A stretch of DNA of 30,086 nucleotides from Paraphysomonas bandaiensis (GCA_965644295.1 CBFFRP010000507.1:1-30086); one strand, 5' to 3'; positions 2,956 through 30,086 are shown, counted from the stretch's first letter. Notes: generated by a model from the letters alone, not told the origin. Made by a program: numbers and translations.

Positions 2956-3784
2956 TGTAACGCCGAGGCGTCAAACTAATCACATACCACAAAAGACCAG
3001 TGAGGTTAATATGCTACAAGGGGGGCTCTAGTGGACTGTGTGTGTATGTACAGTCTGCATCTTATCTTCGGATGAAGACACACTTCACTCTCGGATTACA
3101 AGTGCCGCTGTTTTTGCTGTATGGGCAATGGAGAGATCTGATTGGTGTACTCGGGTTATACTGTTTTGTATACTGTATGGAATACAGGCTGTATTGTCTA
3201 TATGTATATGCTGTATAACGGTGCTGGAATACGGACTGTACTTGGTGGTGATGTGTTTGCAGAGTGTGTTGTGTGACACGAGGTACATAAGTACGCAATG
3301 ATGCAGTTATAGGTACATGTAGGGACTATCACTATACAGCTGCTGTATTATGTATTACTGCTGAACGCTGATTGGCTAGTCACTGCATTTTTGGTCTGTG
3401 GCTGTTGAGTTGGTTTAAGGCTCTTCCTATAGGCCTCTACGTGAATCTTCCAGAAGGTGGATATCTCCACAAAATTGGCGAAATGTTGCTGAATTTTCTG
3501 CAGAATATTGTTCTTTGTTCTCTGCTGTGTTTCTAGATAGTTCATAGAATGTAAATGGTTCTGTATGAGTTGTTTGTGTTCTATGTGCTGTCATTATTAT
3601 GTTACTAGCCTTGCCTATTAACACGTTTGAGGAGGTGTCTTCAGATAAGTGCTTGAGGGTGCTCAGGCAGTTGCAGGGCATAGTAATAAGCATATTTATC
3701 TCTACATTAGCTATTTTCTTGTTACATTCGCACATTCATTTCATATACATAGCTGCACCCGGTGTGATACCCCGGGTTTGGTCA
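2956..3784 (+). repeat. Family A LTR (upstream copy)
   Basis: Direct repeat of 9440-10268 with about six transitions seen by eye; TG...CA termini. Identity runs 2 nt (AA) further, so the right end is ambiguous by 2 nt. Confidence 0.92.
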
Positions 3785-3798
3785 AAGTAAATTTACTT
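3785..3798 (+). promoter_or_regulatory. Palindrome AAGTAAATTTACTT at the primer-binding-site position (A)
   Basis: Perfect 14-nt palindrome directly after the LTR CA; no TGG-type tRNA PBS. Function is inferred. Confidence 0.7.
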
Positions 3799-3883
3799 CC
3801 GAAAGCAGCGAACAAATCTGCAGATTTAGAATTTGCATTAAAAGAACATTCATTATTATAATAATTTAGCATTGAATAACGAC

Positions 3884-5431
3884 ATGGAATCTGCCAACTT
3901 GGAGGATATACTACGAACGATCATGCAACAATTGCAACAGCAACAGCAGGATACGCATGAAATAAGGCAAGACATTCAAGAAATGAAACTGAGTATGCCT
4001 AGAAAACTTGAGCAAGTTGACCAGCGAGTGGATGCGTTGATAGAGGAAAAGCAAAAGAGCGATCAGAAAGTGGAGACTGTGCTGGAAAACATCAATGCCA
4101 GGCTGGAAACTATGGAAACCAGAACTGCTATCCTGGAAGGGGAGAAAGAATTAACGGAGCAGCAGGACAGGGCAATTACCCACCCGAGCGCATCTAGAGA
4201 ACGCAAGACTATTTTCATGAAAGAGGTTGAGGAGACTACACATCTGGCGGAGAGAAGGCAAGTAGTTGTGCAAATGCCTACTCCCTCTCATTCGCATATA
4301 TTCCTAAATTCAATGGACCTGGCGGACTATGCTCAATTTGTGACCAAGTGGTTTGACTGGCAGGTCAAGTATGGGGTGAGACTAGAGCCGGCCCTCATTG
4401 TTTCCCAAAGCATCCGAAATCTACTAATTTTCAATAATGACATGACGGAATCTCAGTTTCAAGAACTCTCACCTGAACAATTTTGCAAGTTGATGGCGAA
4501 AGAAACTCAAGTACTGTCCAAGCTCGAGTTTTCCAACACATTGAGGCATGCCCTAAGAGACATCAAAAGGTTAAACTGGGAAAGAGTTAGACCGAATACT
4601 CACGAGAGGTTCTTCCAAGGCATTCTGAGGCGTAGAGACATATACTTAAGGACCTTCAGGATTATTATGGAGAACAATAGCCAGTATTGCCCAGACCTGG
4701 AAGGCAAAGACTTCGGTTTAGCACAAATATTTCTAAATTTGATTGATGATACTTACAACAAAACTGTCTTGGCCGAAATACCCAAGGTCAAGGCAGGAAA
4801 CTACTCCAAAGTTGAAGAGTTCCTGGAAGCTTATGTTAAGAAGGCTAAGGAGCACTATGACACGTCGAAGCGTATTAGACTGGTGCCATACAGTGGTGAG
4901 GACTATAGCATGAAAAGTCATGACATGCGCAAGAACAAGCCTTACTCTTCACAGGAAGACAAGTACAAAGGACATGAGACAAAAACGTACCCGATGACCA
5001 GTGGGGAAGCTAAGCCTTTGCACCAGATAAATGACTTCAGTGATGATGAAGATCAGGAGCCACGGGAATCCAGAAATGCAGAGCCAGACTCAGATGACGA
5101 CTCTGACTATGAGGAAGACCCAAAGAGCACTGCAGAAGGTCATGACACGAATCAGCGCTACGAGGACAAAGTGGACCACCAGACAGCAAGAGATCAGGAC
5201 ACAGACTACAGAAGGCTACAAGCCATAGAGGCATCTGCTACTGGGTTGGGATGTGTCAATTTCGCCTTGTATGGGAAGTGCTTTCGAGGAGACCAGTGCA
5301 AATATGCTGGAAGTCACAATGAGAAGTGTGCAAAGGACTGCAGACAGTGGATGATGAAGAAGTTGGCGACGATGGAAAGAGATGGTCCGGGACCTCCTAA
5401 GATAATGAAGCGTGATCCAACGAAATCTTGA
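3884..5431 (+). CDS. gag: Gag (family A), N-terminal coiled coil and C-terminal CCCH zinc finger
   Basis: Long ORF between LTR and pol; first ATG at 3884; C-x8-C-x5-C-x5-H at 5252-5317; visibly homologous to the family C gag (e.g. CPDLEGKDFGLAQIF vs CPRIDDKEYGLIRLF). Confidence 0.88.
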   Translation: MESANLEDILRTIMQQLQQQQQDTHEIRQDIQEMKLSMPRKLEQVDQRVDALIEEKQKSDQKVETVLENINARLETMETRTAILEGEKELTEQQDRAITHPSASRERKTIFMKEVEETTHLAERRQVVVQMPTPSHSHIFLNSMDLADYAQFVTKWFDWQVKYGVRLEPALIVSQSIRNLLIFNNDMTESQFQELSPEQFCKLMAKETQVLSKLEFSNTLRHALRDIKRLNWERVRPNTHERFFQGILRRRDIYLRTFRIIMENNSQYCPDLEGKDFGLAQIFLNLIDDTYNKTVLAEIPKVKAGNYSKVEEFLEAYVKKAKEHYDTSKRIRLVPYSGEDYSMKSHDMRKNKPYSSQEDKYKGHETKTYPMTSGEAKPLHQINDFSDDEDQEPRESRNAEPDSDDDSDYEEDPKSTAEGHDTNQRYEDKVDHQTARDQDTDYRRLQAIEASATGLGCVNFALYGKCFRGDQCKYAGSHNEKCAKDCRQWMMKKLATMERDGPGPPKIMKRDPTKS

Positions 5432-8400
5432 CTACTGCAGGGTCTTTCTGGGCCCTCTGTTGTCAGTGAAACAATAAGCTCACACAGCAGGAAGGCTTGC
5501 AGAAAGGCCCTGGAGCGAAGTTTCCTGCAGGCATGCGGCATAGGCAGGAGACTATGGACTGCCGCACACACTAAAGCGAGGATTGAAGTAGTAGATAGAA
5601 AGAATATGGAAATGAGAAGAGACGTAGAGACATCAGTACTGTTCGACACGGGAGCCCTCTGTTCGAACTACATCAGCATAAGGAAGTTTAGAGATATCGA
5701 GAAACACATGCATACTAAGGACATAATACACAAGAGAACAAAAGTCGGATTAGCAGACAATAAGACAGTGGCATGGAGTGACATCATGGTGAGACTTACC
5801 TTGAAGTTCGAGGATCGTGGTTCACCGAGCGCGGTTTCATGCAAATACTCTGGAGAATTTATTGTGTTGGACATGAAAGATAATGAGATCATAATTGGGT
5901 TACCTGCGATACTAGGGGACTTGTGGGACTTCTTTTGCTACAGTCTAAAAGGCAATGCAGAAAGAAAGATTAGAACGAGCGTGCCAGATGCGGAGGAGGA
6001 GATGTTGCAGTTCTTGGCATCCATGGATAACGTAGTGCATCCCTGGTCAAATAGTATGGAGGGAGAGCCACCTGAAGAAGAAATGTCTCCGTTGCCAGTA
6101 CAGTTTGGTGAGGTGATCAAGTTTTTGGGAAAAAGCAGAGAAGAAGCCATTCAGGAATTCAAGGATTTGATGCCCGAGCATATAGCTGAAGATTTTGACA
6201 AAGCAACACCTGTTCGAGAACTGTTACTAAATGAAGGTTTGAAAGTTTTTGTACCAGAGACATGGACTGGTATCAGAGGTGTTGAACCATTAAAACTCAC
6301 CTTCAAAGACACTTTACCTCAGCGACTCAAGCCTAAAGCCAGACCCATAAACCCAAGACTCTGGGAGGCAGCAGAAAAGGAATTTTTGAGACTGCGTGGA
6401 TACATGTACGAGAAGAGTAGATCACCATGGGCGTCTTGCTTGGTTGTTGCTCCCAAGGCTACGAAGCCATTCATCAGGTTCTGTGGTGATTACGTAGAGA
6501 TCAACAGGCATATTCACATCGGTAACTACACTATACCTAATATTAGGCACCAGTTGGATCGTATCATGGGGTACAAGGTATTTTTAGACATAGATCTCAC
6601 AAATGCCTTCCACCAAATCCCATTACATGAAGAGACGGCGGAGAAGCTATCCATTCAAACTCCTTGGGGTCAATATCAACCACGATTCATGCCTGAGGGA
6701 ATAGGTCCTGCTACTGGCGTTTTACAAGAGACTGTCAATGCATTGTTTTCAGACTTACCGTGGGCCATAGTGATATTCGACAACATTTTGCTTCTGGCGA
6801 CGGATTACCAAGAGGCATATGAGAGACTGAAAATCTTCATTGAGAGATGTATACAACACAACGTTATTCTCAAGTTTGCAAAGAGCTGGCTAGGTTTTGG
6901 AGAAGTCAAGTTCTTTGGCTATAGATGTAAGCACCAGAGCTTTGAGTTGACAGAGGATAGAAAGGCTGCATTACTTGAGATACCTTTTCCAGAATCCGGG
7001 AACAGATCCAAGAAAATCAGATCATTATTAGGATGTGGAGTTTTCTTTGCGCCTTTTGTGAAAAATTACAGTGAGAAAGTTAGACATTTGACAGATCTTA
7101 CGAAACCTGAATTCGACTGGACAGATGAGTCAAAGTGGGAGCACGACTATAGACAGGAATTCGAAGATTTCAAGAAGGATTTGCAAGAGGCATGTGCACT
7201 TCATTACCCAGATTACGAGCTGCCATGGGTGATAAGAACTGATGCGAGTGAGATAGGTGTTGGCGGAGTCCTCATTCAAATCAAGACACATGCAGACGGT
7301 TCAAAGGAGGAGCAAATTATAGCGCTGATCTCCAAAAGATTCTCTAAGCAAGCACAGAAGTGGGATACTATTGAGCAGGAGGGATTTGCAATCTACTATG
7401 TGGTCAAGAGACTGGCGTATTATCTAATCGGGAAGGAGTTTTTGTTGGAGACGGATCATAACAACCTGAGATGGATAGAAGCGTCAGAAGTACCCAAGAT
7501 TATACGATGGAGAATTTACCTGCAGTCATTTGTGTTTAAGGTGAGACATATCCCTGGAAAAGAAAATGTACTGGCCGATACACTCTCCAGACTCCATCTA
7601 TGTGTTGCTGAAGAGGACGAGCATGAAGATTGTCATACAGCGGAAGGGCTATGCCACCTGTGTAATGAAGATGACGAATTTGAGGAGGAGGAGTTGGAAT
7701 ATGAACAGCGCATGAGTACCTTATGCAATATGTTTGATGAGGAAGAGGTGCTAGGAGAGGAGATCAAACCCACTCCTAACCATTTGCAGCTCACACCAGC
7801 GGAGTGTTTAGATCAGGTTCACAATGCCCAAGTCGGACACTGGGGAGAGCGCGAGACCTGGAGGAGACTGAACAGGGATTTCCCTGGGCATGGCATATCC
7901 CAGCGACAAGTTAAGGACTATATAGACCGATGCGCAAATTGCCAGAAGTCCAGGAGGGAGATGAAAACTCGGCTGATCCCTGTGCAGAGACACTTGAAAC
8001 CTCCATCACACAGGACCGCAATTGGTATAGATGCATTAGCCATTACACCCCACGGCCGCAATGGAGAGACACACATTAACGTCATTGTGAATTTGTTTAC
8101 GGAGCTAGCGTTTTTGAACCCAGTGAAAGGATGCTCAGCAAAGACCCTGGCGGATTCAGTCTGGAAGTATTGGGCGAATTTCGGTTTTACTGACATGATC
8201 ATATCTGATTTGGGACCAGATTTAAATTCAGCGTTATTCAAGGAATTGACCGATCTGGTGGGAGTTCGGCATGTTTTCAGCATTGCGAACAAACATGTCA
8301 ATGGTTGCGAGCGGGTGAATAAGGAAGTGGGACGACACTTGCGAGCATTGGTATATGACACCAGAGAGAAGGATGTTTTTGACGACCCAACCTTCATCCC

Positions 8401-9412
8401 CAGTGTTCAAATTATTCTTAACACACACAGATCAGCAGAGACAAACTACACTCCATTTGAGCTGACTTTTGGGACACCAGACTCCGTGTATAGTGATCTC
8501 GCGAAGAAATTCGAGCGCGTCCCTGAGCATCTATACCTCCAGAAGATGCACGAGAACCTTCACCAGTTACGCAACGCATCTAGACAATACCAAGAGACTC
8601 TGATCAAGAAGAGAGTGGAGGGTCCTAACCAGAGGATGGGTCCCCAGAACAAATTCCAGAAAGGGGATCTGGTCTTGTACGACCCAGGAGTGAGACCGGT
8701 GCCGAAGCTGTCTACAAAACGCAAGGGACCTTTCGAGGTAGTTCACCAGTACAAGAATGACGTAGACTGCAGAAATGTATTAACAGGGGCTATTCACAAA
8801 TATTCTGTAACTGACCTAGAGTACTTTGTGGGTTCAAAGGAGGATGCCGTGGAAGCTGCCATCCGAGATCAAGAGCAATTCAGAGTCAAGGTGATTCATG
8901 GGTACAAGGGAGATTCCAACCACCGTACTAGCATGACATTCATTGTGGAGTATGCAGATGGGGACATACTGGAAGTACCATGGAGTAGAGATCTATTCGA
9001 TTGTCAGGCATATGAAGATTTCTGTAAATCTAGGAAGTACTTACATCACCTCATCCTGGATCAGAATCAGGTCACTCCTTTCAAGACTCAGCTCAGGAGG
9101 GCAGACGTCACAGCAGTGCAAGTAGGTGATAGAGTGTATGTGGATCTTCGTTTCTTTGGGGATCAGTGGTATCAGAGCTTGGACCTTCCAGACTTTTCTA
9201 CAAAATCGTATGTGGTGGTCTTCGAATATACACATTGGTACCACAGGACATCTAAAAAGAAGATTAGTGCTCGTTTTCTGCTTAATGGTGCTACTTACGC
9301 CCTCGATAATTATCTTGTGTTTGCGTGGGGCTCCGTCAAGACCTTCGATGAGACCTACATGGTGCTCGTGGATGCAGACATCGCCAAGAGGTATCCCCGC
9401 ATTGTTGAATAG
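5432..9412 (+). CDS. pol: Pol (family A): protease, RT, RNase H, integrase, chromodomain-like, extra C-terminal domain; in frame with gag
   Basis: LFDTGA protease; RFCGDY, DIDLTNAFHQ, MPEG, IFDN (RT); TDAS, EQE, TDH, ADTLSR (RNase H); HHCC, D..D..E, GPF (integrase). The frame is open from the gag TGA onward. Confidence 0.95.
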   Translation, partial: LLQGLSGPSVVSETISSHSRKACRKALERSFLQACGIGRRLWTAAHTKARIEVVDRKNMEMRRDVETSVLFDTGALCSNYISIRKFRDIEKHMHTKDIIHKRTKVGLADNKTVAWSDIMVRLTLKFEDRGSPSAVSCKYSGEFIVLDMKDNEIIIGLPAILGDLWDFFCYSLKGNAERKIRTSVPDAEEEMLQFLASMDNVVHPWSNSMEGEPPEEEMSPLPVQFGEVIKFLGKSREEAIQEFKDLMPEHIAEDFDKATPVRELLLNEGLKVFVPETWTGIRGVEPLKLTFKDTLPQRLKPKARPINPRLWEAAEKEFLRLRGYMYEKSRSPWASCLVVAPKATKPFIRFCGDYVEINRHIHIGNYTIPNIRHQLDRIMGYKVFLDIDLTNAFHQIPLHEETAEKLSIQTPWGQYQPRFMPEGIGPATGVLQETVNALFSDLPWAIVIFDNILLLATDYQEAYERLKIFIERCIQHNVILKFAKSWLGFGEVKFFGYRCKHQSFELTEDRKAALLEIPFPESGNRSKKIRSLLGCGVFFAPFVKNYSEKVRHLTDLTKPEFDWTDESKWEHDYRQEFEDFKKDLQEACALHYPDYELPWVIRTDASEIGVGGVLIQIKTHADGSKEEQIIALISKRFSKQAQKWDTIEQEGFAIYYVVKRLAYYLIGKEFLLETDHNNLRWIEASEVPKIIRWRIYLQSFVFKVRHIPGKENVLADTLSRLHLCVAEEDEHEDCHTAEGLCHLCNEDDEFEEEELEYEQRMSTLCNMFDEEEVLGEEIKPTPNHLQLTPAECLDQVHNAQVGHWGERETWRRLNRDFPGHGISQRQVKDYIDRCANCQKSRREMKTRLIPVQRHLKPPSHRTAIGIDALAITPHGRNGETHINVIVNLFTELAFLNPVKGCSAKTLADSVWKYWANFGFTDMIISDLGPDLNSALFKELTDLVGVRHVFSIANKHVNGCERVNKEVGRHLRALVYDTREKDVFDDPTFIPSVQIILNTHRSAETNYTPFELTFGTPDSVYSDLAKKFERVPEHLYLQKMHENLHQLRNASRQYQETLIKKRVEGPNQRMGPQNKFQKGDLVLYDPGVRPVPKLSTKRKGPFEVVHQYKNDVDCRNVLTGAIHKYSVTDLEYFVGSKEDAVEAAIRDQEQFRVKVIHGYKGDSNHRTSMTFIVEYADGDILEVPWSRDLFDCQAYEDFCKSRKYLHHLILDQNQVTPFKTQLRRADVTAVQVGDRVYVDLRFFGDQWYQSLDLPDFSTKSYVVVFEYTHWYHRTSKKKISARFLLNGATYALDNYLVFAWGSVKTFDETYMVLVDADIAKRYPRIVE

Positions 9413-9418
9413 CATAAC

Positions 9419-9436
9419 AGAAAGAGGGGGAGGGGG
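9419..9436 (+). promoter_or_regulatory. Polypurine tract (A)
   Basis: AGAAAGAGGGGGAGGGGG then CAG immediately before the 3' LTR. Confidence 0.9.
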
Positions 9437-9439
9437 CAG

Positions 9440-10268
9440 TGTAACGCCGAGGCGTCAAACTAATCACATACCACAAAAGACCAGTGAGGTTAATATGCTA
9501 CAAGGGGGGCTCTAGTGGATTGTGTGTGTATGTACAGCCTGCATCTTATCTTCGGATGAAGACACACTTCACTCTCGGATTACAAGTGCCGCTGTTTTTG
9601 CTGTATGGGCAATGGAGAGATCTGATTGGTGTACTCGGGTTATACTGTTTTGTATACTGTATGGAATACAGGCTGTATTGTCTATATGTATATGCTGTAT
9701 AACGGTGCTGGAATACGGACTGTACTTGGTGGTGATGTGTTTGCAGAGTGTGTTGTGTGACACGAGGTACATAAGTACGCAATGATGCAGTTATAGGTAC
9801 ATGTAGGGACTATCATTATACAGCTGCTGTATTATGTATTACTGCTGAACGCTGATTGGCTAGTCACTGCATTTTTGGTCTGTGGCTGTTGAGTTGGTTT
9901 AAGGCTCTTCTTATAGGCCTCTACGTGAATCTTCCAGAAGGTGAATATCTCCACAAAATTGGCGAAATGTTGCTGAATTTTCTGCAGAATATTGTTCTTT
10001 GTTCTCTGCTGTGTTTCTAGATAGTTCATAGAATGTAAATGGTTCTGTATGAGTTGTTTGTGTTCTATGTGCTGTCATTATTATGTTACTAGCCTTGCCT
10101 ATTAACACGTTTGAGGAGGTGTCTTCAAATAAGTGCTTGAGGGTGCTCAGGCAGTTGCAGGGCATAGTAATAAGCATATTTATCTCTACATTAGCTATTT
10201 TCTTGTTACATTCGCACATTCATTTCATATACATAGCTGCACCCGGTGTGATACCCCGGGTTTGGTCA
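9440..10268 (+). repeat. Family A 3' LTR
   Basis: Direct repeat of 2956-3784; abuts the broken copia RT. Confidence 0.92.
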
Positions 10269-12902
10269 AACTGGAGCAAACGTGGACTGCTCCTCCTCCG
10301 TTTTTTCTTGTAGATTCCCTAATGCAGTCAGCCGCGCCTTATACTTGACTACATTCACCAGAAGGTCTCTCTTCACCGTGTGAACATACTTTGCCCGCAC
10401 CAACTTCACTCCCCGTGGAGTCCGCACAATCTTTAAGACACGTCTCTTCAGTAGTGAGGTCTTCTCCACCTTCCGAGCTTCTCGCCACTTCATGTACTGT
10501 GGAGATCTCTCCGCTTCAGCATATGATTCTGGTATCTTAAAGTCATCATGTTTCAACTCTGCATGTTTCAAGTTAACAGTGTATGCATCTGGCACCTCAA
10601 CCATATTTATTTCTCCTAATACTGATGCGTTCGCCAACCTACGCTGTAGCCGTTTCCGCCGTACACGACCATCACCATCTAGTTCAATAGGTCGTCTAGT
10701 AGATATATACGAACCCATACCTTGCTCATCCTGAGCCCGCAAATCTTGCGGTGTGGGAGGAGCCCCGCTCGCATCCCCAGACCCACGGTCTGTCGAGGTC
10801 TGCAACCTCACGACTGTCTGTTGACAGGTTGGGTCAGGACTCTCCTGGAACCCTCCAGGTCTTCCCTGGTCCAGCTCCCTGGCTGGCGTAGTACTCAGGG
10901 CGTCCCCCTTTCCTATGTACCCGGTATTCCCGGGGGTTTCTGCAGTCATACGCACTACGTCTTGGACGTGTATAGGCACCCGGTGCTCTATATGCTCACG
11001 ACCTGCAGTAACAAGTGAACGGTATGCTACAATCACACCCTTACGTTCTACAATCAACTCTTGTTGTCTTATACAGAAGTCCGTCCTCATCATCAATATG
11101 ATACGTTCCTTCTAAGCTGGCATAGTCGGATGCAAGCTTGGGTCTAGCGGCCTCCCGCACTCGAAGAGCATCAATCTCTGCAAAATACTTCTCTGATCGT
11201 GATGGCGTTGATTCATCAGTCAATATATGGACTGTAGTCACCACCTTGTTTGATTCAGGAAGATATACATGGTATCCTACCTTCTTCTCATCAGAGTAAC
11301 CCATTAAATATCCAACTAGAGCCTTATCCTCCCAGTCCTTTTGTCGATCTGCCTTCGGTGAAAGAACATAAGTTCGACACCCCCATACCCTAAGATATCT
11401 CAAATTTGGAGGCTCACCCGTTAGAAACTCTATAGGAGACATATACCCTTTATCTGTTTTCGTTGGCAATCGAATCAAAATATATCTGGCTGCCATGTAT
11501 GCATCCAGCCAAAATTGTGGTGGCAGTCCAGATTGGATTAACATTGCAAGGGTCATCTCTCCAGCAGTTCTGAACTTCCTTTCCTCTATGGCATTCATCT
11601 CCGGAGAGTCTGTTGAGCTCCATGTATGTTTATAGCACTCCTGTGACCTAAGATACTGACGCAGCTCCTGTGACCTAAGATACTGACGCAGCTCTTCACT
11701 GATTAATTCTCCTGCACCATCTGCATGGTAATGCTCCATCTTGAGCTTGTACCTTTTAACATCTCCTCTAAACAGCTCTTTGAAGACTTCTAATACCGCT
11801 TCCCCAGTTCTGTTGACTAGACCCGTCGCCCAGAACATTTTGCTTGCATGATGCGTTATTTTCAACACATACCTCTCTCCTCCTCTAGCAGGACAATTTA
11901 AAAACACAGCTATATCTGCTGAAAAATTCGGTCTAACGGAATTCTCGTCCTTCGTTCGGAAGCTGACTCGGGTTATTTTAGACCTGGCACACACATCACA
12001 CAAACACTGATTTTTGTGTACCTTGGCAGTAAGGTGTTTTCGTTTCAACCCCGTGCCCATGATGAGCATCCTCTTATGTGCCTCCACTAAGACATGTTTG
12101 TTGAAGTGACCTGCTCTCCGATGCAGCAATTCCAGCTCGTCCTCACCAGTCCTATCATCTTCATCAGAGAAATCTGCTGGTTCTCCACGCCGTATATTCT
12201 CTACTGTTAGAAGCTTTTTATCTGGTTTCCTTCGATTCTTCGCTATCTCTCCTCTTCGTTTCCTCGCCGTTGGAAAGTCAGAGGCAAGATGCTCCATGGA
12301 CTTGCAATTCCTACATCCTGTATACTCTGCACTTCCAGGACGCTGACCAGTTATATCTCCATCCTTCTTCCTCTGCTTCCTCCTGCACTGTTCAGTTGAA
12401 TGGCTATGAGGAATTCCTTCTTTTTCCTGCAATATCTACAATTGCCCTTCTTACGCTTATCCCGTTCTGTTCGAGACCGTTTGCTCTTTTCAATGAAATT
12501 CAGCTCCTCCACCTTCTTGCGTTTCCGCTCTAACGCAATCCTTCCAGGAATGGTATCATCATACCGTTCTATCTTCCTTGATAATGTTGCATAATCAACA
12601 TCATCCGGCATCAAGTACAAAGCAACATTCAAAGGAGCATATTCTTCATTCAACAGACCTTCTCGTAACCGTGTTATATTTGAGAGCTCCGATATGTCCT
12701 GCTGCTGCTCCTGTAGCTCTTTCAGCAGTATTTCAAACCGTATTATATAGTCCTTCGCAGTCTCCTCCGGACGCATACGGAAAGAGCCATACTGAGTCAA
12801 CAGCTCACTGATCTTGTTTTGCTTCCCTCCAGCAAAGCACTTCTTCAACTCATCAATCATAATATGCGCCTTAAACCTGTTGCTTCCTCTTCCATCAGCA
12901 CA
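10269..12902 (-). pseudogene. Truncated Ty1/copia gag-pol (partial gag, zinc knuckles, GAG-pre-integrase, integrase, start of RT)
   Basis: ORFs 12351-12860, 11041-12432 and 10266-11096 join through frameshifts: FRMRPEETAKDYIIRF (gag), CRNCKSMEH, LLHRRAGH..CDVC, HADGAGE..PEMNAIEER, LRVWGC, PESYAEA..KYKARLTALG..STFAPV. Cut by LTR A; no LTR and no recognisable protease. Confidence 0.9.
11638..11694. repeat. 27-bp tandem duplication inside the copia integrase
   Basis: ctcctgtgacctaagatactgacgcag x2, duplicating ELRQYLRSQ in frame. Confidence 0.9.
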
Positions 12903-14583: not shown

Positions 14584-14586
14584 CTA

Positions 14587-17800: not shown

Positions 17801-18777
17801 ATTCGAATAAAAGGTTTCGTAGCCTTGGGTGCTACTACAATTGGAGATGCATAAGGACTCGTACTGGGACGATAAAAGTATCCGCACATCCTATTGAACT
17901 CCTCCTTCGTACGTTCATATAACATAGGTGGTATCCTTCTCATATTCTTGGGTTTAATTCTATCAGGAATAGTACTTTTCACCTTTAATTTTAACTCAGG
18001 AACATGCTGAATTCCAGTCCACTCTCTAGGAACAAAAACATCAACTGCATCCTCTCTCAAAACTCTCAATATATCAGTTTGTTGAGCGAAATCAGGATGT
18101 ACTTTTGATTCTAGTTCACTAAAATATTTCTCCCTAGCCTCATTCACTGACTGTTCCAAAAAAGTCACTAAACTTCCAAAACTACATGGTTCAGGAATCA
18201 TATCATCTTCCTCTGACTGTTCTGGAATTGGATTCTCCCATGGATTACAGACTGGTCCTGACGACATATATCTCCTAAGTTCGTCAATGTCATCCCCAAT
18301 ATTGGCAAGAACTTCTATTTCACTTAAATTAACAGATTGTTCAACACTCAGTGATGCTTTCTTAATCATATTCATAAATAGTTCGGAAAAATGCTCACAG
18401 ATTGCCGGTAATCCTATAATAATGTCCTTTGCCAAACCGTCCAAAACATACAGTGAAAGTTGTGCTTTGTAGGTCTTACCATCATCTTCGAAAGCAATTG
18501 TAACAGGAATATACCCTTGTAGTTCAATCTGATGTCCGTCTGCTACTTTGACCCTCAATTTTTTATGTACCATATCCTTTAACAATTTGTCCCCACACTT
18601 CTTAACAAAATTTGATGAAATAAAATTATCCGAAGATGATCCGGAATCAAATAAAACCATTTCCACATTAATCTTATCACCACAGTTATTTATTATCATT
18701 CCTTGCCTATGTACAGCATTACGAAATCTGCTGGAAGTATCATTGTAATTTCGCATAGCTGCTATCACTGATTGTGC
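14815..18777 (-). CDS. pol: Pol (family B): protease, RT, RNase H, integrase, chromodomain-like, extra C-terminal domain; in frame with gag
   Basis: LFDSGS; RICGDY, DLDICNAFHG, MPEG, IFDN; TDAS, TDH, ADWLSR; HNGRMGH..CPIC, D..D..E, GPY. Confidence 0.95.
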   Translation of the reverse strand, partial: AQSVIAAMRNYNDTSSRFRNAVHRQGMIINNCGDKINVEMVLFDSGSSSDNFISSNFVKKCGDKLLKDMVHKKLRVKVADGHQIELQGYIPVTIAFEDDGKTYKAQLSLYVLDGLAKDIIIGLPAICEHFSELFMNMIKKASLSVEQSVNLSEIEVLANIGDDIDELRRYMSSGPVCNPWENPIPEQSEEDDMIPEPCSFGSLVTFLEQSVNEAREKYFSELESKVHPDFAQQTDILRVLREDAVDVFVPREWTGIQHVPELKLKVKSTIPDRIKPKNMRRIPPMLYERTKEEFNRMCGYFYRPSTSPYASPIVVAPKATKPFIRICGDYRRVNLEIESPHYPIPDVIKELHKAAGYKVFIDLDICNAFHGIRLHESVSALLSVQTPWGQFEPKFMPEGVSPASGVLMHVVSDIFNEFSEWMVVIFDNLLVLAHDYQDAIEKFKKVIKKCTYYNVVLKLSKSKFGYSSVEFFGYLCKDNTYQLTEARKLSVTAIEFPEGKNKTKQMQRFLGAAIYFKPFIPLYSDLTHKLHDMTKKNFDWNENCWKVNYREEFSRFKEAILKSLTLYHPDYSLRWILMTDASFYACGGVLLQIFIDANGQEFYQVIAMVSKKFSEPTLKWSTIDKECFGIFFCVYALSYYLRGKKFTIMTDHANLKWMEVSVVDRIVRMRMFIQNFNFDLLHFKGKLNRFADWLSRKDQESAVAHVMLLSISIDCFPEESLIYGEIVIFENTDLLPEDQLIELNCIGEWSSESDDIACCAVFSSEIIAALEELASQNLRPKSVKEAFDLVHNGRMGHHGTKRTWLKLSKVFPGHTITTEVIQDLIDRCPICQKLNAGMSTSLQAPIRALDSEHCRQFVGFDTLTVSPPDKYGHCCIHVVKQMPSRLIGLYPAKDYKAVGVARALFSYFVTYGISEVMISDPGSNITAEVVQLLLKWFGVRFRMSLVDRHESNMVERTHQETLRFLSALVHDERLQDVWGDPECYLLIQFILNDEVSSETGLSPFEFTFGTAAMPYFKLTDNVNVSSAMEYIAKFNEHLETIREIANEVQRKIQNKRKSKTPVESLTQYQPGQLVLFQLNPKRHKPTKLYPRFKGPYEVVSTYKADVTCVHIVMRFEVVLHMSWLKPFFGTLEDAYRVAQIDFNQHTVRSIVAHRGDPEVRTTMDFQVQFEDGSLLWIPWSLDISSTSHFQLYCEQRPYLFPLLFTATMAKAERTRMKRIPIEGVSPGQTIYVDLRAWGADFYDTLDLPNCYTTIYVVECNYVRWAGRRKLRIDLYCPLFRSTYEWSAYDVHCYGRVTTFDSSIMVLVDAEFCKRFPDILL

Positions 18778-20400
18778 TCAAAGGTCATCCAAAGGATTGT
18801 CATCTCCTTGTTGATCCTCTTCAATATCAAGTTGATCTCTGGTAAGGATACGTACATCTCCAGGACGCTTAACATCACCTGGATTCCTTTTTAATTGCCC
18901 TGGGTTACCACCAAAACGGCGTTGAGGAGGCGTTGTTAGACTTGGCCTTGGCATTACCACCATACCCATTTTCGTGTTCATGACTTTCAAAGCATCAATG
19001 AGAATAGCCTTATCATGAGAAAATTTACATGATTTGTCTTTGCAACCTCCCTCTTGCATCATTTCTCTAAAACATGGAGCAGATTTCTGTGCTTCAACAG
19101 TTGCCAGCAAATCCTCTTCATGTTTTAGTACGCATAACTCATCATCAATAATTTCCTCCTCGTCACAATACTCATTTACGTCATCAACATGTTTGAGTTC
19201 CTTAACTTTCTTATTATCCTTATCACTCGAAAACTTAAATCGACTCTTAAACTGATTATACTTCTCATGTAATTCTCGAGTAATTTTCCAGATTTTAAAA
19301 AACTCAGACAAAAACAGTTGCACAGAAGTAAAGTTTTCTGTCCTCAAAAGTCTTCTGAAAGTATCACGCATGCAATAAGGAATCAAACTAAACCATTCAG
19401 CTAAAGAACCACCTCTCTTAGTTGTAATCAGAGGAATACTATCTCTCAGGTCATTCTGCTTGGCTGCTTCCTCTAGAAACTCATACCTCTGTAAGAACTT
19501 AGTTTCCAGAATACAAAGATCCTCGTCAACCTTACGAAAATTCTCCAACTTTTCCATTGAGACTTTATACGACTCACATGACGAAGCTAACATTTTGTTG
19601 AATTGCATCACATCAAATGGCCTAAAATGACGTCTTGCTGCCGCAATAAGATCCGTAATACTGGCATCATTACATTCAATCTGACTAGGATACACATTGG
19701 GTTTAATTTCCTTAAGAGTATGCCTAATCAACTCCTTAGCCCTTCCATCCAACAACGCATAAACTGATGGTATAGGTCTATTACGATTCATTTTCTCAAA
19801 CTCCGCAATTTTCTCCAAAAACACCAAGAAACCATCAAGAGTAATTACTGACAGCTTTATACCATACTTCTTTGGATCCTTTTCTGCTGCTACTGTAACC
19901 TCACTTGAACCGTTTCTCTCAATTTCCTGTAAAGCTTCTTGCAATGTAAGACGCTGATGTGTACCCACTGGCCGCTCATCTTCTGATTTAAGAGCCAATG
20001 TCGCATTCATAACACCTTCACGCACAGCATTCTCAATACGTGTCTGCAACAAATCAGGGTCTATATACTGCTGCTCACGCTGTTCAATTGCTGTAACTAC
20101 AGGCTCTAGTCCAACAACTTCATTACCATTTGATTTCGACTCTTCGAATGGTATTTCTGAGAACTGATCAGCTTGTACGATTTCTGAATTTGCTCTCGAT
20201 GACCTTCCAGACCTCCTCTGTCGAAGCTCCTCGAGACTCTGTTGAACATACTGATTGAACACCTGTTGCTCGTGATAACGTTGCTCATTACGTTGTTCAC
20301 GTTGCTCATTACGTTGTTCTATATTATCCAAACGCTGAAACAGTTGCTGGATATACAGTGGAATCCGCTCCTCCTCAGCTCCATCATCTGTTCCCTCCAT
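18778..20400 (-). CDS. gag: Gag (family B) with CCCH zinc finger
   Basis: Position upstream of pol; first ATG at 20400; C-x9-C-x4-C-x3-H at 19074-19015; EQRN repeats in an N-terminal coiled coil. Confidence 0.87.
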   Translation of the reverse strand: MEGTDDGAEEERIPLYIQQLFQRLDNIEQRNEQREQRNEQRYHEQQVFNQYVQQSLEELRQRRSGRSSRANSEIVQADQFSEIPFEESKSNGNEVVGLEPVVTAIEQREQQYIDPDLLQTRIENAVREGVMNATLALKSEDERPVGTHQRLTLQEALQEIERNGSSEVTVAAEKDPKKYGIKLSVITLDGFLVFLEKIAEFEKMNRNRPIPSVYALLDGRAKELIRHTLKEIKPNVYPSQIECNDASITDLIAAARRHFRPFDVMQFNKMLASSCESYKVSMEKLENFRKVDEDLCILETKFLQRYEFLEEAAKQNDLRDSIPLITTKRGGSLAEWFSLIPYCMRDTFRRLLRTENFTSVQLFLSEFFKIWKITRELHEKYNQFKSRFKFSSDKDNKKVKELKHVDDVNEYCDEEEIIDDELCVLKHEEDLLATVEAQKSAPCFREMMQEGGCKDKSCKFSHDKAILIDALKVMNTKMGMVVMPRPSLTTPPQRRFGGNPGQLKRNPGDVKRPGDVRILTRDQLDIEEDQQGDDNPLDDL

Positions 20401-20457: not shown

Positions 20458-20469
20458 AGTAATATTACT
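20458..20469 (-). promoter_or_regulatory. Palindrome AGTAATATTACT at the primer-binding-site position (B)
   Basis: Perfect 12-nt palindrome overlapping the last LTR base; an identical copy lies at 2421-2432 in B'. Function is inferred. Confidence 0.7.
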
Positions 20470-20924
20470 GTGATGTTTCTGAGAACTAGAAACACGTGAA
20501 AGACAAAAAGCTCTTACTAAAAACGTTTTAACAGATTTAGAGTGCACGCCAGCGGGCTGCTACACTGTTAAGTCTACCAGCGGGTAGAACTCCTCCACAC
20601 AAACGCAAACCGCGAATGAGCTTAATTGAATCGTTATTAAAACGTTATATAGAAAAGAATGAGTAACACAGCTATACATCTCTACAGTGTAACACACACA
20701 TACACATACATCATGTTCAGCATTTCACTTCAACACACAACACACCCGATTAGAAGTATTTTATCCGGTATGCATGTACAGCTTCAACACTCTGAGAGTA
20801 GAAACTGAAAATAAAACTGAAAACTGAAAATACTAACACACTCTGTACGTGTTAGAGAGTACAACAGAAGAGTAACATATCATACTACTAATAACGCAGT
20901 ATAAGTAACCAGTACTGCGTGACA
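20469..20924 (-). repeat. Family B 5' LTR
   Basis: Direct repeat of 14128-14583. Confidence 0.95.
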
Positions 20925-21638
20925 CTTCGGTCGATGTGAAACCTGCTGCAAATTTATATCAAAGTTATGTGGGCCCGTATTCCTGTATAGCAGTTGCAGT
21001 ATATACTTCCATATACATACATACATGTATTACCCATACTACCCTATAGGGGGGCAAGTACATGTGACCATCATAAGAGGGAAGTCGCTATTGTTCACTT
21101 GAGGTGCACGAGTGTTTATGCAAGGCTTATTGGGGTTCGATTGCAAATGTGGTGTGCGTACTATACGTACTATACGTACTGTATTTATGTATTTCCTGGA
21201 TTATGGGGTTTTCGGTCTCTGGTAGGGTATAGATACGTAGTATACGGTGTACTCTCGGCATATGCTGGTGAGTCACTCCCTATCAGGTTGCTGTGTATTT
21301 TTCAGTTTTGATTGAAGAGTTACGCAACCTGTGGTGGTGTGATGACACCACGTGTGTTGTACCATGTTAGGAGTGTGTGTGTGCATATATGCTTCTATGG
21401 TGTTTATCACTTGTTTTAAGTTAGACCAAAGCTTGGTGCTAGTGATCTTGGGTGCCGGCGGTATACCATTGCGCGGTGGCTCTTTGCGGGAGTCACTAAC
21501 TAAGTTTAGGTCTAGACTTAGAAAAGTGTTTTAATAATAATACCGTTATTACTGTTCTTTGTTGGTTCAGTGTAGGTGTTATTGTAGTTTTATTGTTTAC
21601 GAGCCAACACCCTGGTTATCAAACCGGGTGTTGTTATA
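20925..21638 (+). repeat. Family C LTR, 5'-truncated (solo or 3' LTR)
   Basis: Aligns to 24024-24739 with scattered substitutions and small indels; ends GTTGTTATA; not followed by the palindrome. Confidence 0.9.
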
Positions 21639-22043: not shown

Positions 22044-22106
22044 ATGACAAAATATACAAAATAAATAAAAAGGTTTAAAAATATATAATGTATATATATA
22101 TATTAT

Positions 22107-22445: not shown

Positions 22446-22516
22446 AATATATAAAATATATAAAATATATAAAATAAATAAAATGGTTTAAAATATAAAA
22501 TGTACATGTATTATAT

Positions 22517-23733: not shown

Positions 23734-24739
23734 TGTGACCACGTGGCATTTCCCATGCCCTATCTACGTGGCTATAGTATCACGCTATTGAGTCACATGC
23801 ATGGTTACATTGACTTTTAGGACCCTATGTTGGTTTAAGACCCTATATCAGGACCCTATATATTGCTTTAGGACCTTCATTGTGTTCAGGATACATATTA
23901 TGCAACACCATTTGGACATTGGTAATGTACCACAGTGTACCTACATATTGAGCCAACGTTCGGGTATGATGTCCAATTTTTATCTGCTGCTGATGATGTA
24001 CGACTATGATCTGCTGCTGGTGACTTCGGTCGATGTGAAACCTGCTGCAAATTTATATCAAAGTTATGTGGGCCCGTATTCCTGTGTAGCAGTTGCAGTA
24101 TATACTTCCATATACATACATACATGTATTACCCGTACTACCCTATAGGGGGGCAAATACATGTGACCATCACAGGAGAGAAGTCGCTATTATACACTTG
24201 AGGTGCACGAGTGTTCATGCAAGGCTTATTGGGGTTGGATTGCAATGTGGTATGCGTACTATACGTACTATATGTACCGTATTTATGTATTTCCTGGATT
24301 ATGGGGTTTTCAGTCTCTGGTAGGGTATAGATACGTAGTATACGGTGTACTCTCGGCATATGCTGGTGAGTCACTCCCTATCAGGTTGCTGTGTATTTTT
24401 CAGTTTTGATTGAAGAGTTACACAACCTGTGGTGGTGTGATGACACCACGTGTGTTGTACCATGTTAGGAGTGTGTGTGTGTGCATATATGCTTCTATGG
24501 TGTTTATCACTTGTTTTAAGTTAGACCAAAGCTTGGTGCTAGTGATCTTGGGTGCCAGCGGTATACCATTGCGCGGTGACTCTTCGCGGGAGTCACTAAC
24601 TGAGTTTAGGTCTAAACTTGGAAAAAAGTGTTTTAATAATAATACCGTTATTACTGTGCTTGTTGGTTCAGTGTAGGTGTTGTTGTAGTTTTATTGTTTA
24701 CGAGCCAACACCCTGGTTATCAAACCGGGTGTTGTTATA
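23734..24739 (+). repeat. Family C 5' LTR (~1006 bp, TG...TA)
   Basis: The right end is defined by the repeat with 20925-21638. The left end is inferred from TGTGAC at the compositional break. Confidence 0.8.
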
Positions 24740-24752
24740 GTAAATATTTACT
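24739..24752 (+). promoter_or_regulatory. Palindrome AGTAAATATTTACT at the primer-binding-site position (C)
   Basis: Perfect 14-nt palindrome overlapping the last LTR base. Function is inferred. Confidence 0.7.
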
Positions 24753-25279: not shown

Positions 25280-27088
25280 ATGTCTACTCCGACTGGTAAA
25301 ACGAGGAGAGGCGGCAAGAAAACTCCTGGGAAAGATCAGGAAGCCGCTGGTAGTGGTGAAACCAAACAAGACGCTGCTGGAGGTGTGCAGGATGTTGTTC
25401 AGGAGTCTTCTGCTCCAAACATCAATCCAAACCAGGAGATTTTGGATACAGTTCGTGCCATGTCTCAGTCTTTTACAGAGGTGGCTACTGCAGTGTCTAA
25501 CCTCAGCAGCAGGATGCAAATATTGGAGAATAGAGTACAAAATGTTGAGGATGGTGAGAGCAGTCAGTCTCAGGCTTCTGTGGGCTCACATCAGCGGCAA
25601 AAGGTTACCAAGCGCACGTCGAAACACAAACGTCAGCCGAGGTATTCCACTCTGGAAAACATGGCTAAGTTTCGCATTATTCCTCAGGAGGAAGATAGCA
25701 ACAAGGAGGACGATGGTTCGAATCCCGATGTTGATGGTGATGGTGTTAATGATGTGCCTACCCTCATGGATAACATCTTTAAGGGCAAGAAAGCGGGCAA
25801 GTTATTCAGGGATTTGAAGAAAAGTTCTGAGGTGGCTAGTGCCAAAACAGTTACCATAACTAGAGAGGAAAGGAGGTGTCATGTTCGCATCAATGACTTT
25901 AAGTTGGGTAAAGTGGCGAAAGCGATCAAAGACATCTTAGAGTTTCAAGAGCAAGAAGAAACTGAGGTGCGAATTCAAAAGGTACTTTCAACCAGTTTGA
26001 AGGCACATCTGCGGAATGTGTACAGCATCACACATGCGCAGCTGGCACAAATGGATGTTTCGGATTTGCTTCTCATTGTGGCTCAGGAGACCAAGGTGTT
26101 CAATTGCGTGGCATTTTATAATGAACTCAGAGATTCCTTGAAACATATCCAGATCATGGACTGGAAGTATGTAAATGCTGTGACTTTTGAGGCATTCTAT
26201 CATCAGCAATTGAACTTGATGCAGTCGTTCCAAACAATGTTGTCTATCATGTTGGTCTCAAACAAAACATGGTGTCCTCGTATCGATGACAAAGAGTACG
26301 GATTGATAAGACTCTTTAAGACTTTGAATGACGGGACCTATGTTAAGTATGTGTTGGGGTGCATGTCGACAAATAAATTTGACTCTATGAGCGAATTTTT
26401 CAAAGAGTATTCGGCTGTACTCTTGGATCATTATCAAGTAACCATCGCGTACCGACAGTTACCTATGGAGTCGACTACGATGTTTCAACAGAAGCACGAG
26501 GACTATCTTAAGAGGAGAAAGGAACTATTCTCTCAACAGTCCAACAAACCTTCGTTGAACAGTCGTGTTGATTCTAAACCAAGGGTTTCGCAAGTGTCAC
26601 ATCTAGATACTTACGATGAGTCTGGAGGAAACTATAACGATGAGTGGGATGATAATGATGGGTATGTACCCAATGATGATGATTTGTGGGATGCTCCGAG
26701 TGAGACTTGGCGGTCCAGTAATCTGGAGGTACATGACGATAAACAAGTCGCTATGATGACAGATGTGAAACCAATGTCGGGTAATGACGCAGCACTTGAT
26801 GGGGAGCGTCGTGTTAACTCTGATAGGTCTCTGTCAGCCATGCATAGTAGGCCAACTGGTGCTCAGAATAGTAAGACCGATAAGTATGGGTGTCTTAGGA
26901 AAATCATGTATGGCAAGTGCGACAAAACAGACTGTCCATATAATCATAATGCGAAATGTCTGTTGGATTCTGCGTCCGAAATGCGGGACAAGATCGATGC
27001 GTATCTTAAGTCTGCGGGAAGCTCGGAGCAGAGGGACAAACAACCGACCATCTTGAGGAGGGATCACTTCGGTGATTCCCGCCCTTGA
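25280..27088 (+). CDS. gag: Gag (family C) with CCCH zinc finger
   Basis: First ATG at 25280; C-x8-C-x4-C-x3-H at 26891-26947; similar to gag A. Confidence 0.88.
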   Translation: MSTPTGKTRRGGKKTPGKDQEAAGSGETKQDAAGGVQDVVQESSAPNINPNQEILDTVRAMSQSFTEVATAVSNLSSRMQILENRVQNVEDGESSQSQASVGSHQRQKVTKRTSKHKRQPRYSTLENMAKFRIIPQEEDSNKEDDGSNPDVDGDGVNDVPTLMDNIFKGKKAGKLFRDLKKSSEVASAKTVTITREERRCHVRINDFKLGKVAKAIKDILEFQEQEETEVRIQKVLSTSLKAHLRNVYSITHAQLAQMDVSDLLLIVAQETKVFNCVAFYNELRDSLKHIQIMDWKYVNAVTFEAFYHQQLNLMQSFQTMLSIMLVSNKTWCPRIDDKEYGLIRLFKTLNDGTYVKYVLGCMSTNKFDSMSEFFKEYSAVLLDHYQVTIAYRQLPMESTTMFQQKHEDYLKRRKELFSQQSNKPSLNSRVDSKPRVSQVSHLDTYDESGGNYNDEWDDNDGYVPNDDDLWDAPSETWRSSNLEVHDDKQVAMMTDVKPMSGNDAALDGERRVNSDRSLSAMHSRPTGAQNSKTDKYGCLRKIMYGKCDKTDCPYNHNAKCLLDSASEMRDKIDAYLKSAGSSEQRDKQPTILRRDHFGDSRP

Positions 27089-30086
27089 TGGTTCGGTGGA
27101 TGTGACGATACAGACAAGGAGGATTCCAATTCAAAGACTCGGGATGAGAATGATGAATGTTCAGTGCATTCTAATGATCTTAATGAGTTTGCGAATTCCT
27201 CCAATGTCTGTATCGGGGATCAGGCTAAGCTGTATGCCTGCTATCCTTCATCCAAGAGCTTCTCTTCAGCGCACACTATAGGAAGGATTACTTTAGATAG
27301 AAAATTTGGAATAGAGGAGTTAGTAAAAATATTGTGTGACACTGGAGCCCTCTCAGCCAATTATGTGTCGAGGGATTTGGTGGACAGATTGCGGAACAAA
27401 CTAGAACCGAGCCGTTTTTATAAAGCTAAACACCGTGTGGTATTGGCGGATAGTAGAACGGTGAAGGATCTCAATGAAGGAGTCAGATTAAATTTAGTGC
27501 TGACTGATCCGAAGAGTCATACCTATCAATATACGGGTGAATTCTTTGTGATTGATATGACGAGTAATGATATTATTTTGGGGTTGCCTGCGCTGACTGG
27601 AAAATTATATCCTTTCATGTGTGCTGTTATGCGTGAGGCACATGACACTCAAATCGAGGGTGTCTCCGATAATGAAAATTCGAATGTGTTGTCATCTCTG
27701 GCAGGGGACACGGTTGACTCTGATGACCGTGTGCACCCATGGTCAAGAGCGAGTGATGCTATTGCCCCAGAGGATGAGGAAACTGAGTTACCGGTTCAAT
27801 TCAAGGATGCGTTGACATTCTTAGGAAAGTCTAGGGAGGAAGCCCTCCAAGACTATCATGAGCAGATAGAGACTCATGTCAGCGATGAAATGAAAAGTGA
27901 AACTAAGATTATGGAATTGTTGTCAACGAAGGCTGAAAAAGTGTTTGTGCCTGACGAATGGAGCGGTGTGAGAGGTGTGGACCCTTTGTCTCTAAAATGG
28001 AAAAGCACTCTCCCGGATCGAATGAAACCAAAGGCTCGCCCGATCAATCCTAAGCTGTGGGAAGCTTCGGAAAAGGAGTTTCGGCGACTGTGTGGCTATT
28101 TCTACCGAAAGAGTCGTTCTCCTTGGGCTTCATGCCTAGTGGTTGCTCCCAAAGCCACTCCTCCATACATCCGTTTTTGTGGTGACTATGTGCAAATTAA
28201 CAAGCACATGGAAGTGGGAAATTATACGATCCCTAATGTTAAGCATGAGTTGGACAAGATTATCAACTTTCCGCTATACATGGATATAGATTTAACAAAT
28301 GCTTTTCATCAAATTCCATTAGATGATGAAACTTCTGAGCGCCTATCAATTCAGACGCCTTGGGGGCAATTTGCTCCTAATTTCATGCCAGAGGGTATTG
28401 CTCCGGCCACGGGTGTTTTACAGGAAACTGTGAGAGAAATATTCGATGATTTCTCTGAGTGGGCCATAGTCATTTTCGATAACATGCTTATATTGGCTAA
28501 TGATGCCAGGGATGCTTATGAGAAGTTCGAAAAGATCATTGACAGATGTATTGAAAGGAATGTGAAACTTAAGATGCCAAAAAGCTGGTTGGGGTTTAGA
28601 AAGGTGGATTTCTTTGGATATGTTTGCCGTCACAAGTCATATGAGGTTAATCCCGATAAGAAGGAGGCTCTCGGCAAGATTCCAATGCCTACTAACACCA
28701 AACAGGCCAGATCGTTGCTGGGTAAAGGGGTATTCTTTTCTAGTTTTACGCCTAGATACTCTGATTTAGTTGCTCACTTGACTGACATGACAAAGTCGAG
28801 TTTCAATTGGGATAAGTCCACATGGCGGCATGACTACGAGGCAGAGTATCGTCGTTTCATTGCCGGACTACAAGACGCTTGTGAGCTGTTTTATCCGGAT
28901 TATAATCTTGAGTGGACATTGCGTACTGACGCTAGTGAGTTGGGAATAGGTTCAGTGTTATTGCAAAAGAAAATATTAGAGGATGGGAGCATACAGTGGC
29001 AGCCTATAGCTTTCATTTCCAAAAAGTTTTCTGCCCAAGCTCAGAAGTGGTCAACTATAGAGCAAGAGGCATATGGAATTTTCTACAGTGTTAAACACTT
29101 GGCTTATTACTTAATAGGCAAGCAATTCACAATTGAGACCGACCATAACAATCTATTGTGGATGGAATCTTCGGATGTTCCAAAGATTACACGATGGAGG
29201 ATATTCTTGCAGTCTTTCAACTTCAGCATTCGTCATATATCTGGTGCCAAGAATTGGTTGGCGGACTGGTTATCTAGAGAGCATCAGGTTGCTATACTCT
29301 CTGGAATATTCCCAGAGGAGGAATATGATGACGCCTATTTCATGGGGGATGACTGTAATGAGTATGAGTACTTTAACTTTCTGGGTAACTTTATGAACCC
29401 GGATGATCGAGAGATTGAGGACCCTCCAACATCTCATGTATCACCGGAGACGGCGTTGCGTGAGGTTCATAACGCGCGAGTTGGACACATGGGGGGAAGG
29501 GCTACCTGGATACGCTTAAACAAAGAGTTCCCGGGTCATAATATTCCTTACAAGGTTGTTGAGGATTATATCTCTAAGTGCCCAAATTGTGTGAAAACGA
29601 GGTTGGCTATGAAGGAGGCTCTTATCCCGATCGTACGAAATCTCAAGCCCCCAAATGCTCGTAGCGCGATTGGTATAGATGCTGTTGAGATTACACCTCA
29701 CGGTGCAGAGGGATATACACATATCAACGTGGTGGTCAATCTTTTCACCAAGTTTGTGTACCTTGAACCTGTCAAAGGTGTGACGGCTCTTAATCTTGCA
29801 AATACTATATGGAAATACTGGAGTCATTACGGTCACACAGATCTAATAATCTCGGATCAAGGACCGGATTTGACTTCAGATTTGTTCAAACAGTTGACGG
29901 AGTACATGGGTGTTCGGCACACTTTTAGTATTGCCAATCGCCATGCAAATGGATGTGAAAGAATTATTGGAGAAGTAGTTCGACATCTACGTGCTCTGGT
30001 CTATGATTACAGTGAACGGGAGGAACGACAAGACATCTTTGAGGACCCTAGTTGGTTAGCAAGTGTTCAATATCTTCTAAATTCTG
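27089..30086 (+). CDS. pol: Pol (family C), partial; absent from the ORF track, apparently because it has no stop inside the window
   Basis: Manual translation in the gag frame gives LCDTGA, RFCGDY, DIDLTNAFHQ, MPEG, IFDN (28472-28483), TDAS, TDH, ADWLSR, HNARVGH..CPNC, ISDQG, NGCERII. Confidence 0.93.

Follow-up and report, generated by a model that had tools for sequence, protein, structure and literature searches.

A Ty3/gypsy clade with a palindrome at the primer site and an xxDN reverse transcriptase, represented by three elements of a nested transposon cluster

The LTR retrotransposons A, B and C found in the window (the whole stretch of DNA analysed, 30,086 nt) are members of a large, long-separated Ty3/gypsy clade. 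The clade has a probable non-tRNA primer site that has been kept as a palindrome through 15 variants. Our best explanation, to which we give about an even chance, is that a gypsy clade with a remodelled reverse transcriptase (RT) carries this palindrome where a tRNA site would be expected and is primed by two genomic RNAs that pair there. The clade is probably undescribed, as judged from the published descriptions of named lineages. A wider reading, in which it is an undescribed deep LTR lineage with hundreds of families in aquatic protists, is primed in trans by an RNA-RNA dimer and has moved a carboxylate from motif C to motif A of the RT, is tentative and in our judgement somewhat less than evenly probable.

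The three elements and their relatives

The window is a nested transposon cluster with a complete element A, a complete element B and an element C that runs into the window end. The features are:

2956-10270 (+), element A, complete
2956..3786 (+), A 5' LTR, TGTAAC...GGTCAAA, direct repeat of 9440-10270
about 3752-3782 (+), A U5 hairpin, within the 5' LTR
3785..3798 (+), A palindrome at the position of the tRNA primer-binding site, 14 nt, taking in the last LTR A
3884..5428 (+), A gag with C-terminal CCCH finger (PF25585 at E 3e-5, below cutoff)
5429..5520 (+), A junction, in-frame TGA-CTA followed by a stem-loop (-42.9 kcal/mol, z -5.6), putative signal for readthrough
5432..9412 (+), A pol (PR-RT-RH-IN), RT motif IFDN at 6773-6784
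8651..9409 (+), A integrase C-terminus, from AlphaFold models and fold searches
about 8651-8830 (+), A integrase SH3
about 8879-9037 (+), A chromodomain-like fold
9056-9409 (+), A third barrel, SH3/Tudor-like
9421..9439 (+), A polypurine tract (PPT) and CAG spacer, from sequence
9440..10270 (+), A 3' LTR, adjoining a copia remnant
14128-20924 (-), element B, complete
20469..20924 (-), B 5' LTR, TG...CA, identical to the B 3' LTR
20458..20469 (-), B palindrome at the primer site, 12 nt
18778..20400 (-), B gag with CCCH finger, in-frame TGA at 18778-18780
14815..18777 (-), B pol, IFDN RT, integrase C-terminus as in A
14584-14601 (-), B PPT and TAG spacer
14128-14583 (-), B 3' LTR
23734 to window end (+), element C
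23734..24739 (+), C 5' LTR, TGTGAC...TTATA, strong U5 hairpin (z -4.3)
24739..24752 (+), C palindrome at the primer site, 14 nt
25280..27088 (+), C gag with CCCH finger, in-frame TGA at 27086-27088
27089..30086 (+), C pol, incomplete at the window end, stop to protease Asp without Met
20925..21638 (+), 5'-truncated C LTR, interrupted by B
2421..2880 (-), B-like LTR (truncated, 82% to B), palindrome of 12 nt at 2421-2432

A second LTR copy independently fixes the LTR end in A, B and C, and the start of the C LTR agrees with two sister elements in which the LTR begins with TGTGAC right after the PPT. The two A LTRs differ at 6 of 831 positions; the identical B LTRs and the stop-free ORFs are signs of recent activity, and third codon positions hold 14 of the 18 pol differences among runs (hand count, among the differences listed). 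A first-pass annotation had described the LTRs of the three elements as without evident similarity and their gags as divergent. The LTRs indeed gave no alignment overall, but A and C share a weak 27-nt match in U5, and while the gags of A and B show no significant similarity (E 0.48), there is clear homology between those of A and C (23% over 429 aa, E 2e-26).

With the A RT and RNase H (RT-RH) as query, 749 proteins were found at E<=1e-20 among 3660 candidates, and an exhaustive RT search gave 328 representatives of 50% clusters at E<=1e-30 (10,855 at 1e-10). The motif counts below cover the best 150 of these 328, ordered by likeness to the A RT, which have identities of 41-72%, one outlier aside. 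The relatives come from marine metagenomes and coded organisms; none was found in viral contigs, and a search of the ESM Atlas with the RT returned generic RT clusters. We took 80 loci from 228 confirmed metagenome stretches; together with the three window elements these gave 70 with a stop-free RT-RH and 48 at 90% identity, and 52 canonical RTs fetched by an MPFG pattern gave an outgroup of 42 rows.

The suggestion that the elements form an old and diversified clade was borne out. In a quick RT-RH tree, which was repeated, all 48 ingroup rows form one branch (SH-aLRT 100) against the 42 canonical gypsy-type rows, on a stem of 2.46 substitutions per site, with A and C in one subclade and B distant. 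A second tree, drawn from a badnavirus-like root and containing 10 rows of the ingroup, placed the clade among rows without a detected chromodomain and apart from the chromodomain-bearing ones; constraining it with 13 unnamed rows taken as chromovirus-like was not rejected (p-AU 0.133). The order gag-PR-RT-RH-IN between direct LTRs with a PPT is that of Ty3/gypsy elements (Metaviridae), and Ty3 was the best PDB match (E 1e-74 over RT-RH-IN), with caulimovirid-type and retroviral matches lower. The canonical YxDD, a typical feature of Ty3/gypsy elements rather than a formal criterion, is absent, all 48 loci having xxDN.

We found no description of the clade in the literature searched, which did not extend to subscription papers and Repbase reports and for which IFDN was no main-text search term; a term search of the available text of PMC6317226, PMC2774666, PMC5348765, PMC6875170 and PMC13148404 likewise gave no matching description. 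It is rather unlikely, in our view, that the clade has already been catalogued, in Repbase or as an Ectocarpus or oomycete gypsy lineage with chromatin readers, with its motifs merely unremarked. Stramenopile gypsy elements with chromatin-reader tails outside the chromoviruses are indeed known from Ectocarpus and, in the case of Chronos, from oomycetes (PMC12477816, PMC5348765, both seen in part). The Ectocarpus genome has chromodomain gypsy lineages unrelated to chromoviruses and the Tudor-bearing Gypsy-10_Ec32, and some of its families have non-CA LTR ends (TG-TA/TG-AA termini), according to the available part of PMC12477816. By the same partial text, the Tudor element is a lineage separate from the chromodomain ones, and the Gypsy notes mention no CCCH finger, palindrome or readthrough. 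The dual RNase H reported for Chronos in the accessible part of PMC5348765, with the additional archaeal-type RNase H of Chronos/Archon, is absent here, and no informative name occurs among the 120 + 120 homologues listed, nearly all of which are metagenome or run assemblies. Annotation tools that lean on tRNA sites and YxDD would score this large group poorly.

The reverse transcriptase active site

The first-pass annotation had pointed out an IFDN RT, and VIFDN is present in all three elements. Among the best 150 representatives, xxDN occurs together with a motif B Glu (xPEG type) in 149, the sole exception being an unrelated 27% match. The Tyr of YxDD is replaced by Ile in 122 and by Leu in 19 of these 149, and the residue that follows is mostly aromatic. 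Because the representatives are ranked by likeness to A and the outgroup was picked by MPFG, contrasts in motif B are biased and intermediates may be unseen. In the parts covered, RNase H and integrase keep their catalytic residues, with an integrase D-to-E spacing of mostly 33-34, and a single RNase H with an intact D-E-D-D is followed by a short acidic linker to the integrase.

Another change lies in motif A, where the residue two before the catalytic Asp is acidic (Asp or Glu) in 144 of the 149 representatives and in 48/48 loci, compared with 0/42 outgroup rows. By the geometry of HIV RT this residue presumably adjoins the lost aspartate and could thus supply the missing carboxylate; in the mechanism that we propose, this extra acidic residue would take the part of the third carboxylate that was lost.

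Ty3 (PDB 7Q5B, 4OL8) is the best solved relative and has the same domain order, but it has YLDD and MPFG where IFDN and MPEG are found here, is tRNA-primed and has an integrase D-to-E spacing of 35. In Ty3 the equivalent change, D214N, was reported to leave polymerase activity intact and to abolish transposition (PMC5371799, available part). A whole clade thus thrives in spite of a change that stops transposition in Ty3, and its RT points to compensating residues and to the role of the third aspartate of YxDD. A natural Asn for the last Asp is also on record for the C. elegans elements Cer7-Cer12, for which the accessible text of PMC554778 gives a YVDN motif; they belong to another superfamily (BEL/Pao) and keep the Tyr.

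The palindrome and the priming of reverse transcription

A palindromic primer site had been noted in A, B and C, and a palindrome of 14, 12 and 14 nt, respectively, indeed abuts each 5' LTR, beginning exactly at the last LTR base; in the truncated B-like LTR it is the same 12-mer as in B. The palindrome search covered 48 loci whose gag is intact and preceded by 80 nt or more; it required a perfect palindrome, with the A of CA, TA or AA as its anchor, at most 700 nt from the gag ATG. Such a palindrome was found in 44 of the 48 (3.8 expected from shuffles), or 27/30 non-redundantly, and in 6/66 coding control windows. Its perfection is conditional on the search demanding a perfect match, and the misses amount to only 4/48, among them a truncated locus, a locus with the common 12-mer farther upstream and a locus with a 10-mer. 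The palindromes are 12-14 nt long (L078 being counted as a 12-mer starting at C) and fall into 15 variants with six 4-nt centres, every centre being self-complementary; the single most common 12-mer accounts for 14/44 sites. None of the 44 sites has the TGG start of a tRNA-primed primer-binding site. The LTR end at the palindrome, inferred in the relatives from CA/TA and nearness to gag without a second LTR, is CA in 32, TA in 10 and AA in 2; the A and C LTRs themselves have the non-canonical ends AA (3786) and TA (24739). No tRNA genes were found in the window or in 21 loci, and no Rfam match was found.

The first-pass annotation also held that the clade has a replication mechanism of its own. 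The part of this proposal that gained support is that the non-tRNA primer site stays palindromic through many changes and that a non-canonical RT site is fixed. In the mechanism that we favour, the palindromes of two co-packaged RNAs would pair into a 12-14-bp duplex, RNase H would cut one strand at the 3' edge of the palindrome, by analogy with Tf1 RNase H, and the freed 3' end would be extended into the U5-R of the partner RNA. As the primer would be copied back into the new primer-binding site, any mutation would be mirrored into the other half. Cleavage of an RNA duplex by Tf1 RNase H is the subject of a study cited by title in bioRxiv 2022.12.06.519325. Priming by an intermolecular duplex is favoured by this analogy, by a predicted duplex (-11 to -13 kcal/mol) that is far stabler than the hairpin (0 to -0.9) and by the result of a search of the A, B and C LTRs for a Tf1-type complement, which found none, the best candidates reaching 8/11, 8/11 and 10/13 Watson-Crick pairs.

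The same hairpin energy makes priming in cis, with the palindrome hairpin of one RNA cut and then extended, improbable. It would require a single RNA only and could be assisted by the neighbouring U5 stem, but the bases of a free hairpin loop would not need to be self-complementary and all six observed centres are, which counts for the duplex.

A self-complementary centre would suit any dimer role, so that the palindrome might instead be a dimerisation or packaging signal like the retroviral DIS/PAL, with priming from another source: a small RNA of the host, a degraded fragment or initiation de novo. A comparison with DIS was raised for the GalEa palindrome by Donnart et al. (PMC5445492, available part), and the unusual RT site would fit de novo priming by an altered RT. 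We nevertheless consider this alternative unlikely, since in all three elements the palindrome begins exactly at the final base of the LTR, the point at which a primer has to end, and no further candidate for a primer site was seen; known DIS palindromes, according to the same partial text, lie in a loop and occur in addition to the primer-binding site.

Even less probable, to the point that we give it very little weight, is that an internal or half tRNA (the anticodon arm) serves as the primer, a mode known from several Copia and fungal Helenus families. The mode is documented, and one very common 12-mer (14/44) is what a host-fixed primer would give, but 15 variants that are all perfect palindromes are hard to match to anticodon arms, and the available part of PMC10886601, which describes the mode, confines it to Copia.

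If priming by two paired genomic RNAs is true, it would add a third mode of initiation to the two known for LTR elements, tRNA priming and Tf1-type priming, and the natural paired palindrome variants make it directly testable. The closest parallel is that with the fungal GalEa elements (Ty1/copia), which, in the accessible sections of Donnart et al. (2017, PMC5445492), have a Conserved Hairpin Site and no tRNA primer-binding site, a palindrome that extends over the final A of the 5' LTR, a gag finger of three Cys and one His, and an RT motif without the Tyr (QTDD). They differ in their Copia order, in a 10-nt palindrome that pairs with a downstream CHSeq2 and in keeping DD, whereas here the palindrome is 12-14 nt long, stems where present are located upstream of it, in U5, and the RT motif reads xxDN. 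If the undescribed-lineage reading is true, this parallel (palindrome, three-Cys finger, lost YxDD Tyr) would be a convergent, functionally coupled syndrome. The Tf1/sushi chromoviruses (Tj1, Tosmo1-3, Tcry1) share tRNA-independent priming, a chromodomain after the integrase and, in some, an in-frame TGA-CT between gag and pol where others have a single ORF, but their primer is the 5' end of their own mRNA (pretzel), for which no such complement was found here (PMC4600332, bioRxiv 2022.12.06.519325, both seen in part). For single traits precedents are thus known from the partly available sources: the GalEa palindrome, Tj1 readthrough and the YVDN of Cer7-12.

A U5 hairpin shared by the three elements had been claimed as well; that of C clearly beats its shuffles (z -4.3), but those of A (-0.9) and B (-1.6) do not stand out. 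The 42 nt before the palindrome have a mean folding z of -1.5 and lie below -2 in 13/44 loci, and we conclude that the hairpin is real in some elements and not a strong clade trait. In A and B a PPT followed by CAG or TAG and by the TG of the LTR was present as claimed, and a purine tract with YAN spacer and TG was called in 13/28 loci (TAG in 10), many of the misses having a 3' region that is short or truncated. Since Tf1/sushi elements have similar spacers, this one is probably not atypical.

Gag-pol junction, integrase tail and surroundings

The in-frame TGA between gag and pol and the CCCH finger at the gag end, both noted in the first-pass annotation, are present in A, B and C. The finger was found in 42/43 cases, and the junction varies: 76 loci with a protease call have TGA in 45, TAG in 3, a fused frame in 21 and an unclear junction in 7, or non-redundantly 25 stop versus 18 fused. 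The stop is in frame and followed by C in 17/23 TGA cases, Met is absent between the stop and the protease Asp in 9/25, and the RNA after the stop folds with z<-2 in 14/24 compared with 0/18 fused junctions (p 2e-4, kinship uncorrected). The stop-bearing junctions look like ordinary programmed readthrough, independent of the primer site; in these elements Pol is predicted to arise from readthrough of UGA-C or UAG-G aided by the 3' stem-loop, and programmed readthrough at a gag-pol stop is described for Tj1/Tosmo (PMC4600332, bioRxiv 2022.12.06.519325, available parts). Reassignment of UGA was rejected, since the three stop-free pol ORFs hold 66 TGG and no TGA. A spliced sense pol mRNA was weakly rejected, there being no sense-strand joint across the A stop among those listed; contigs of both RNA-like runs bridge this stop, which is weak evidence because contig strand is not fixed.

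That all of these traits are functionally linked was not borne out. The RT site, CCCH finger, palindrome and integrase tail are near-fixed together, but the UGA junction changes state repeatedly across the tree, at least 6-8 times (8 changes needed, at least 6 forced by strong branches), and this junction, the U5 hairpin and the PPT spacer do not belong to any linked set. Nor was the stop linked to other traits, the palindrome being present in 13/14 fused and 14/16 stop-bearing families. For the near-fixed traits, a single origin gives no independent contrasts, so that their co-occurrence could reflect shared ancestry alone.

AlphaFold models of the A integrase tail (pLDDT 92 and 96.5) suggest three folds. 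The first corresponds to the SH3 domain PF24626, found in 25/35 members. The second matches cpSRP43 (3ui2_A) over model residues 77-129 (Z 5.8, rmsd 1.7, 48 aligned), a range that we take to be its chromodomain; Pfam Chromo had no match in the 35 members, the third cage position is not aromatic, and the chromodomain at the integrase C-terminus that marks chromoviruses is found here by predicted fold only. The third lies in the post-chromodomain extension that had been described, which is indeed common to A and B (about 120 aa); since it had no Foldseek match at E<=0.001 and a best Z of 5.9 to generic Tudor/MBT/KOW folds, it is assigned to the SH3/Tudor type only. The ESM Atlas held only matches under 0.8 for the extension, and its strict motif occurs in 95 of the 120 homologues listed (hand count). 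The SH3, chromodomain-like and Tudor-like tail might read chromatin and so target insertion; chromatin reading by the tail is a guess.

Minus-strand introns were found across the gag and pol of A, ten in number, of 47-91 nt and with GT..AG borders (4424-9298). They occur in the RNA-like runs X15 and X16, two being shared by both studies, and in neither X13 nor X2 among the four runs compared. We conclude from these introns that A is transcribed antisense and spliced, and this splicing is the sole RNA evidence seen (A being the element examined). A coding gene was rejected, as the longest frame stays at 162 aa after removal of the ten introns; the spliced antisense RNA may be a silencing RNA.

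Two broken Ty1/copia remnants lie at 1-2270 (+) and 10266-12902 (-), the second carrying A within its RT. The host exon at 13146-14127, with a REJ domain, Cys-rich EGF-like repeats and 16 homologues, is split by B. Gene content and the shortness of the introns would fit a chrysophyte-like protist as host, which is a guess. No target-site duplication of 4-5 bp was found in the window, where flanks are rearranged; the flanks of B at 14128 and 20924 are unmatched (host exon and C LTR) in spite of its identical LTRs, which may mean that two B copies have recombined or that the assembly is joined there. An AT-rich island (21639-23733, about 25-30% GC) is flanked by two C LTRs. The ORF at 22517-23788 had no match in Pfam, PHROG or PDB; by eye it has what we take to be motifs like those of family-B DNA polymerases and is possibly a Polinton-like or giant-virus relic. 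Just before the A 5' LTR, positions 2880-2955 are the final 76 nt of a further copy of A, with its pol end and PPT, joined at a short microhomology to the truncated B-like LTR, which we read as the remnant of a tandem array. Long terminal duplications with a period of 8.3-8.6 kb were also seen in the loci L050, L052, L060 and L076, which are tandem arrays or circularly collapsed elements.
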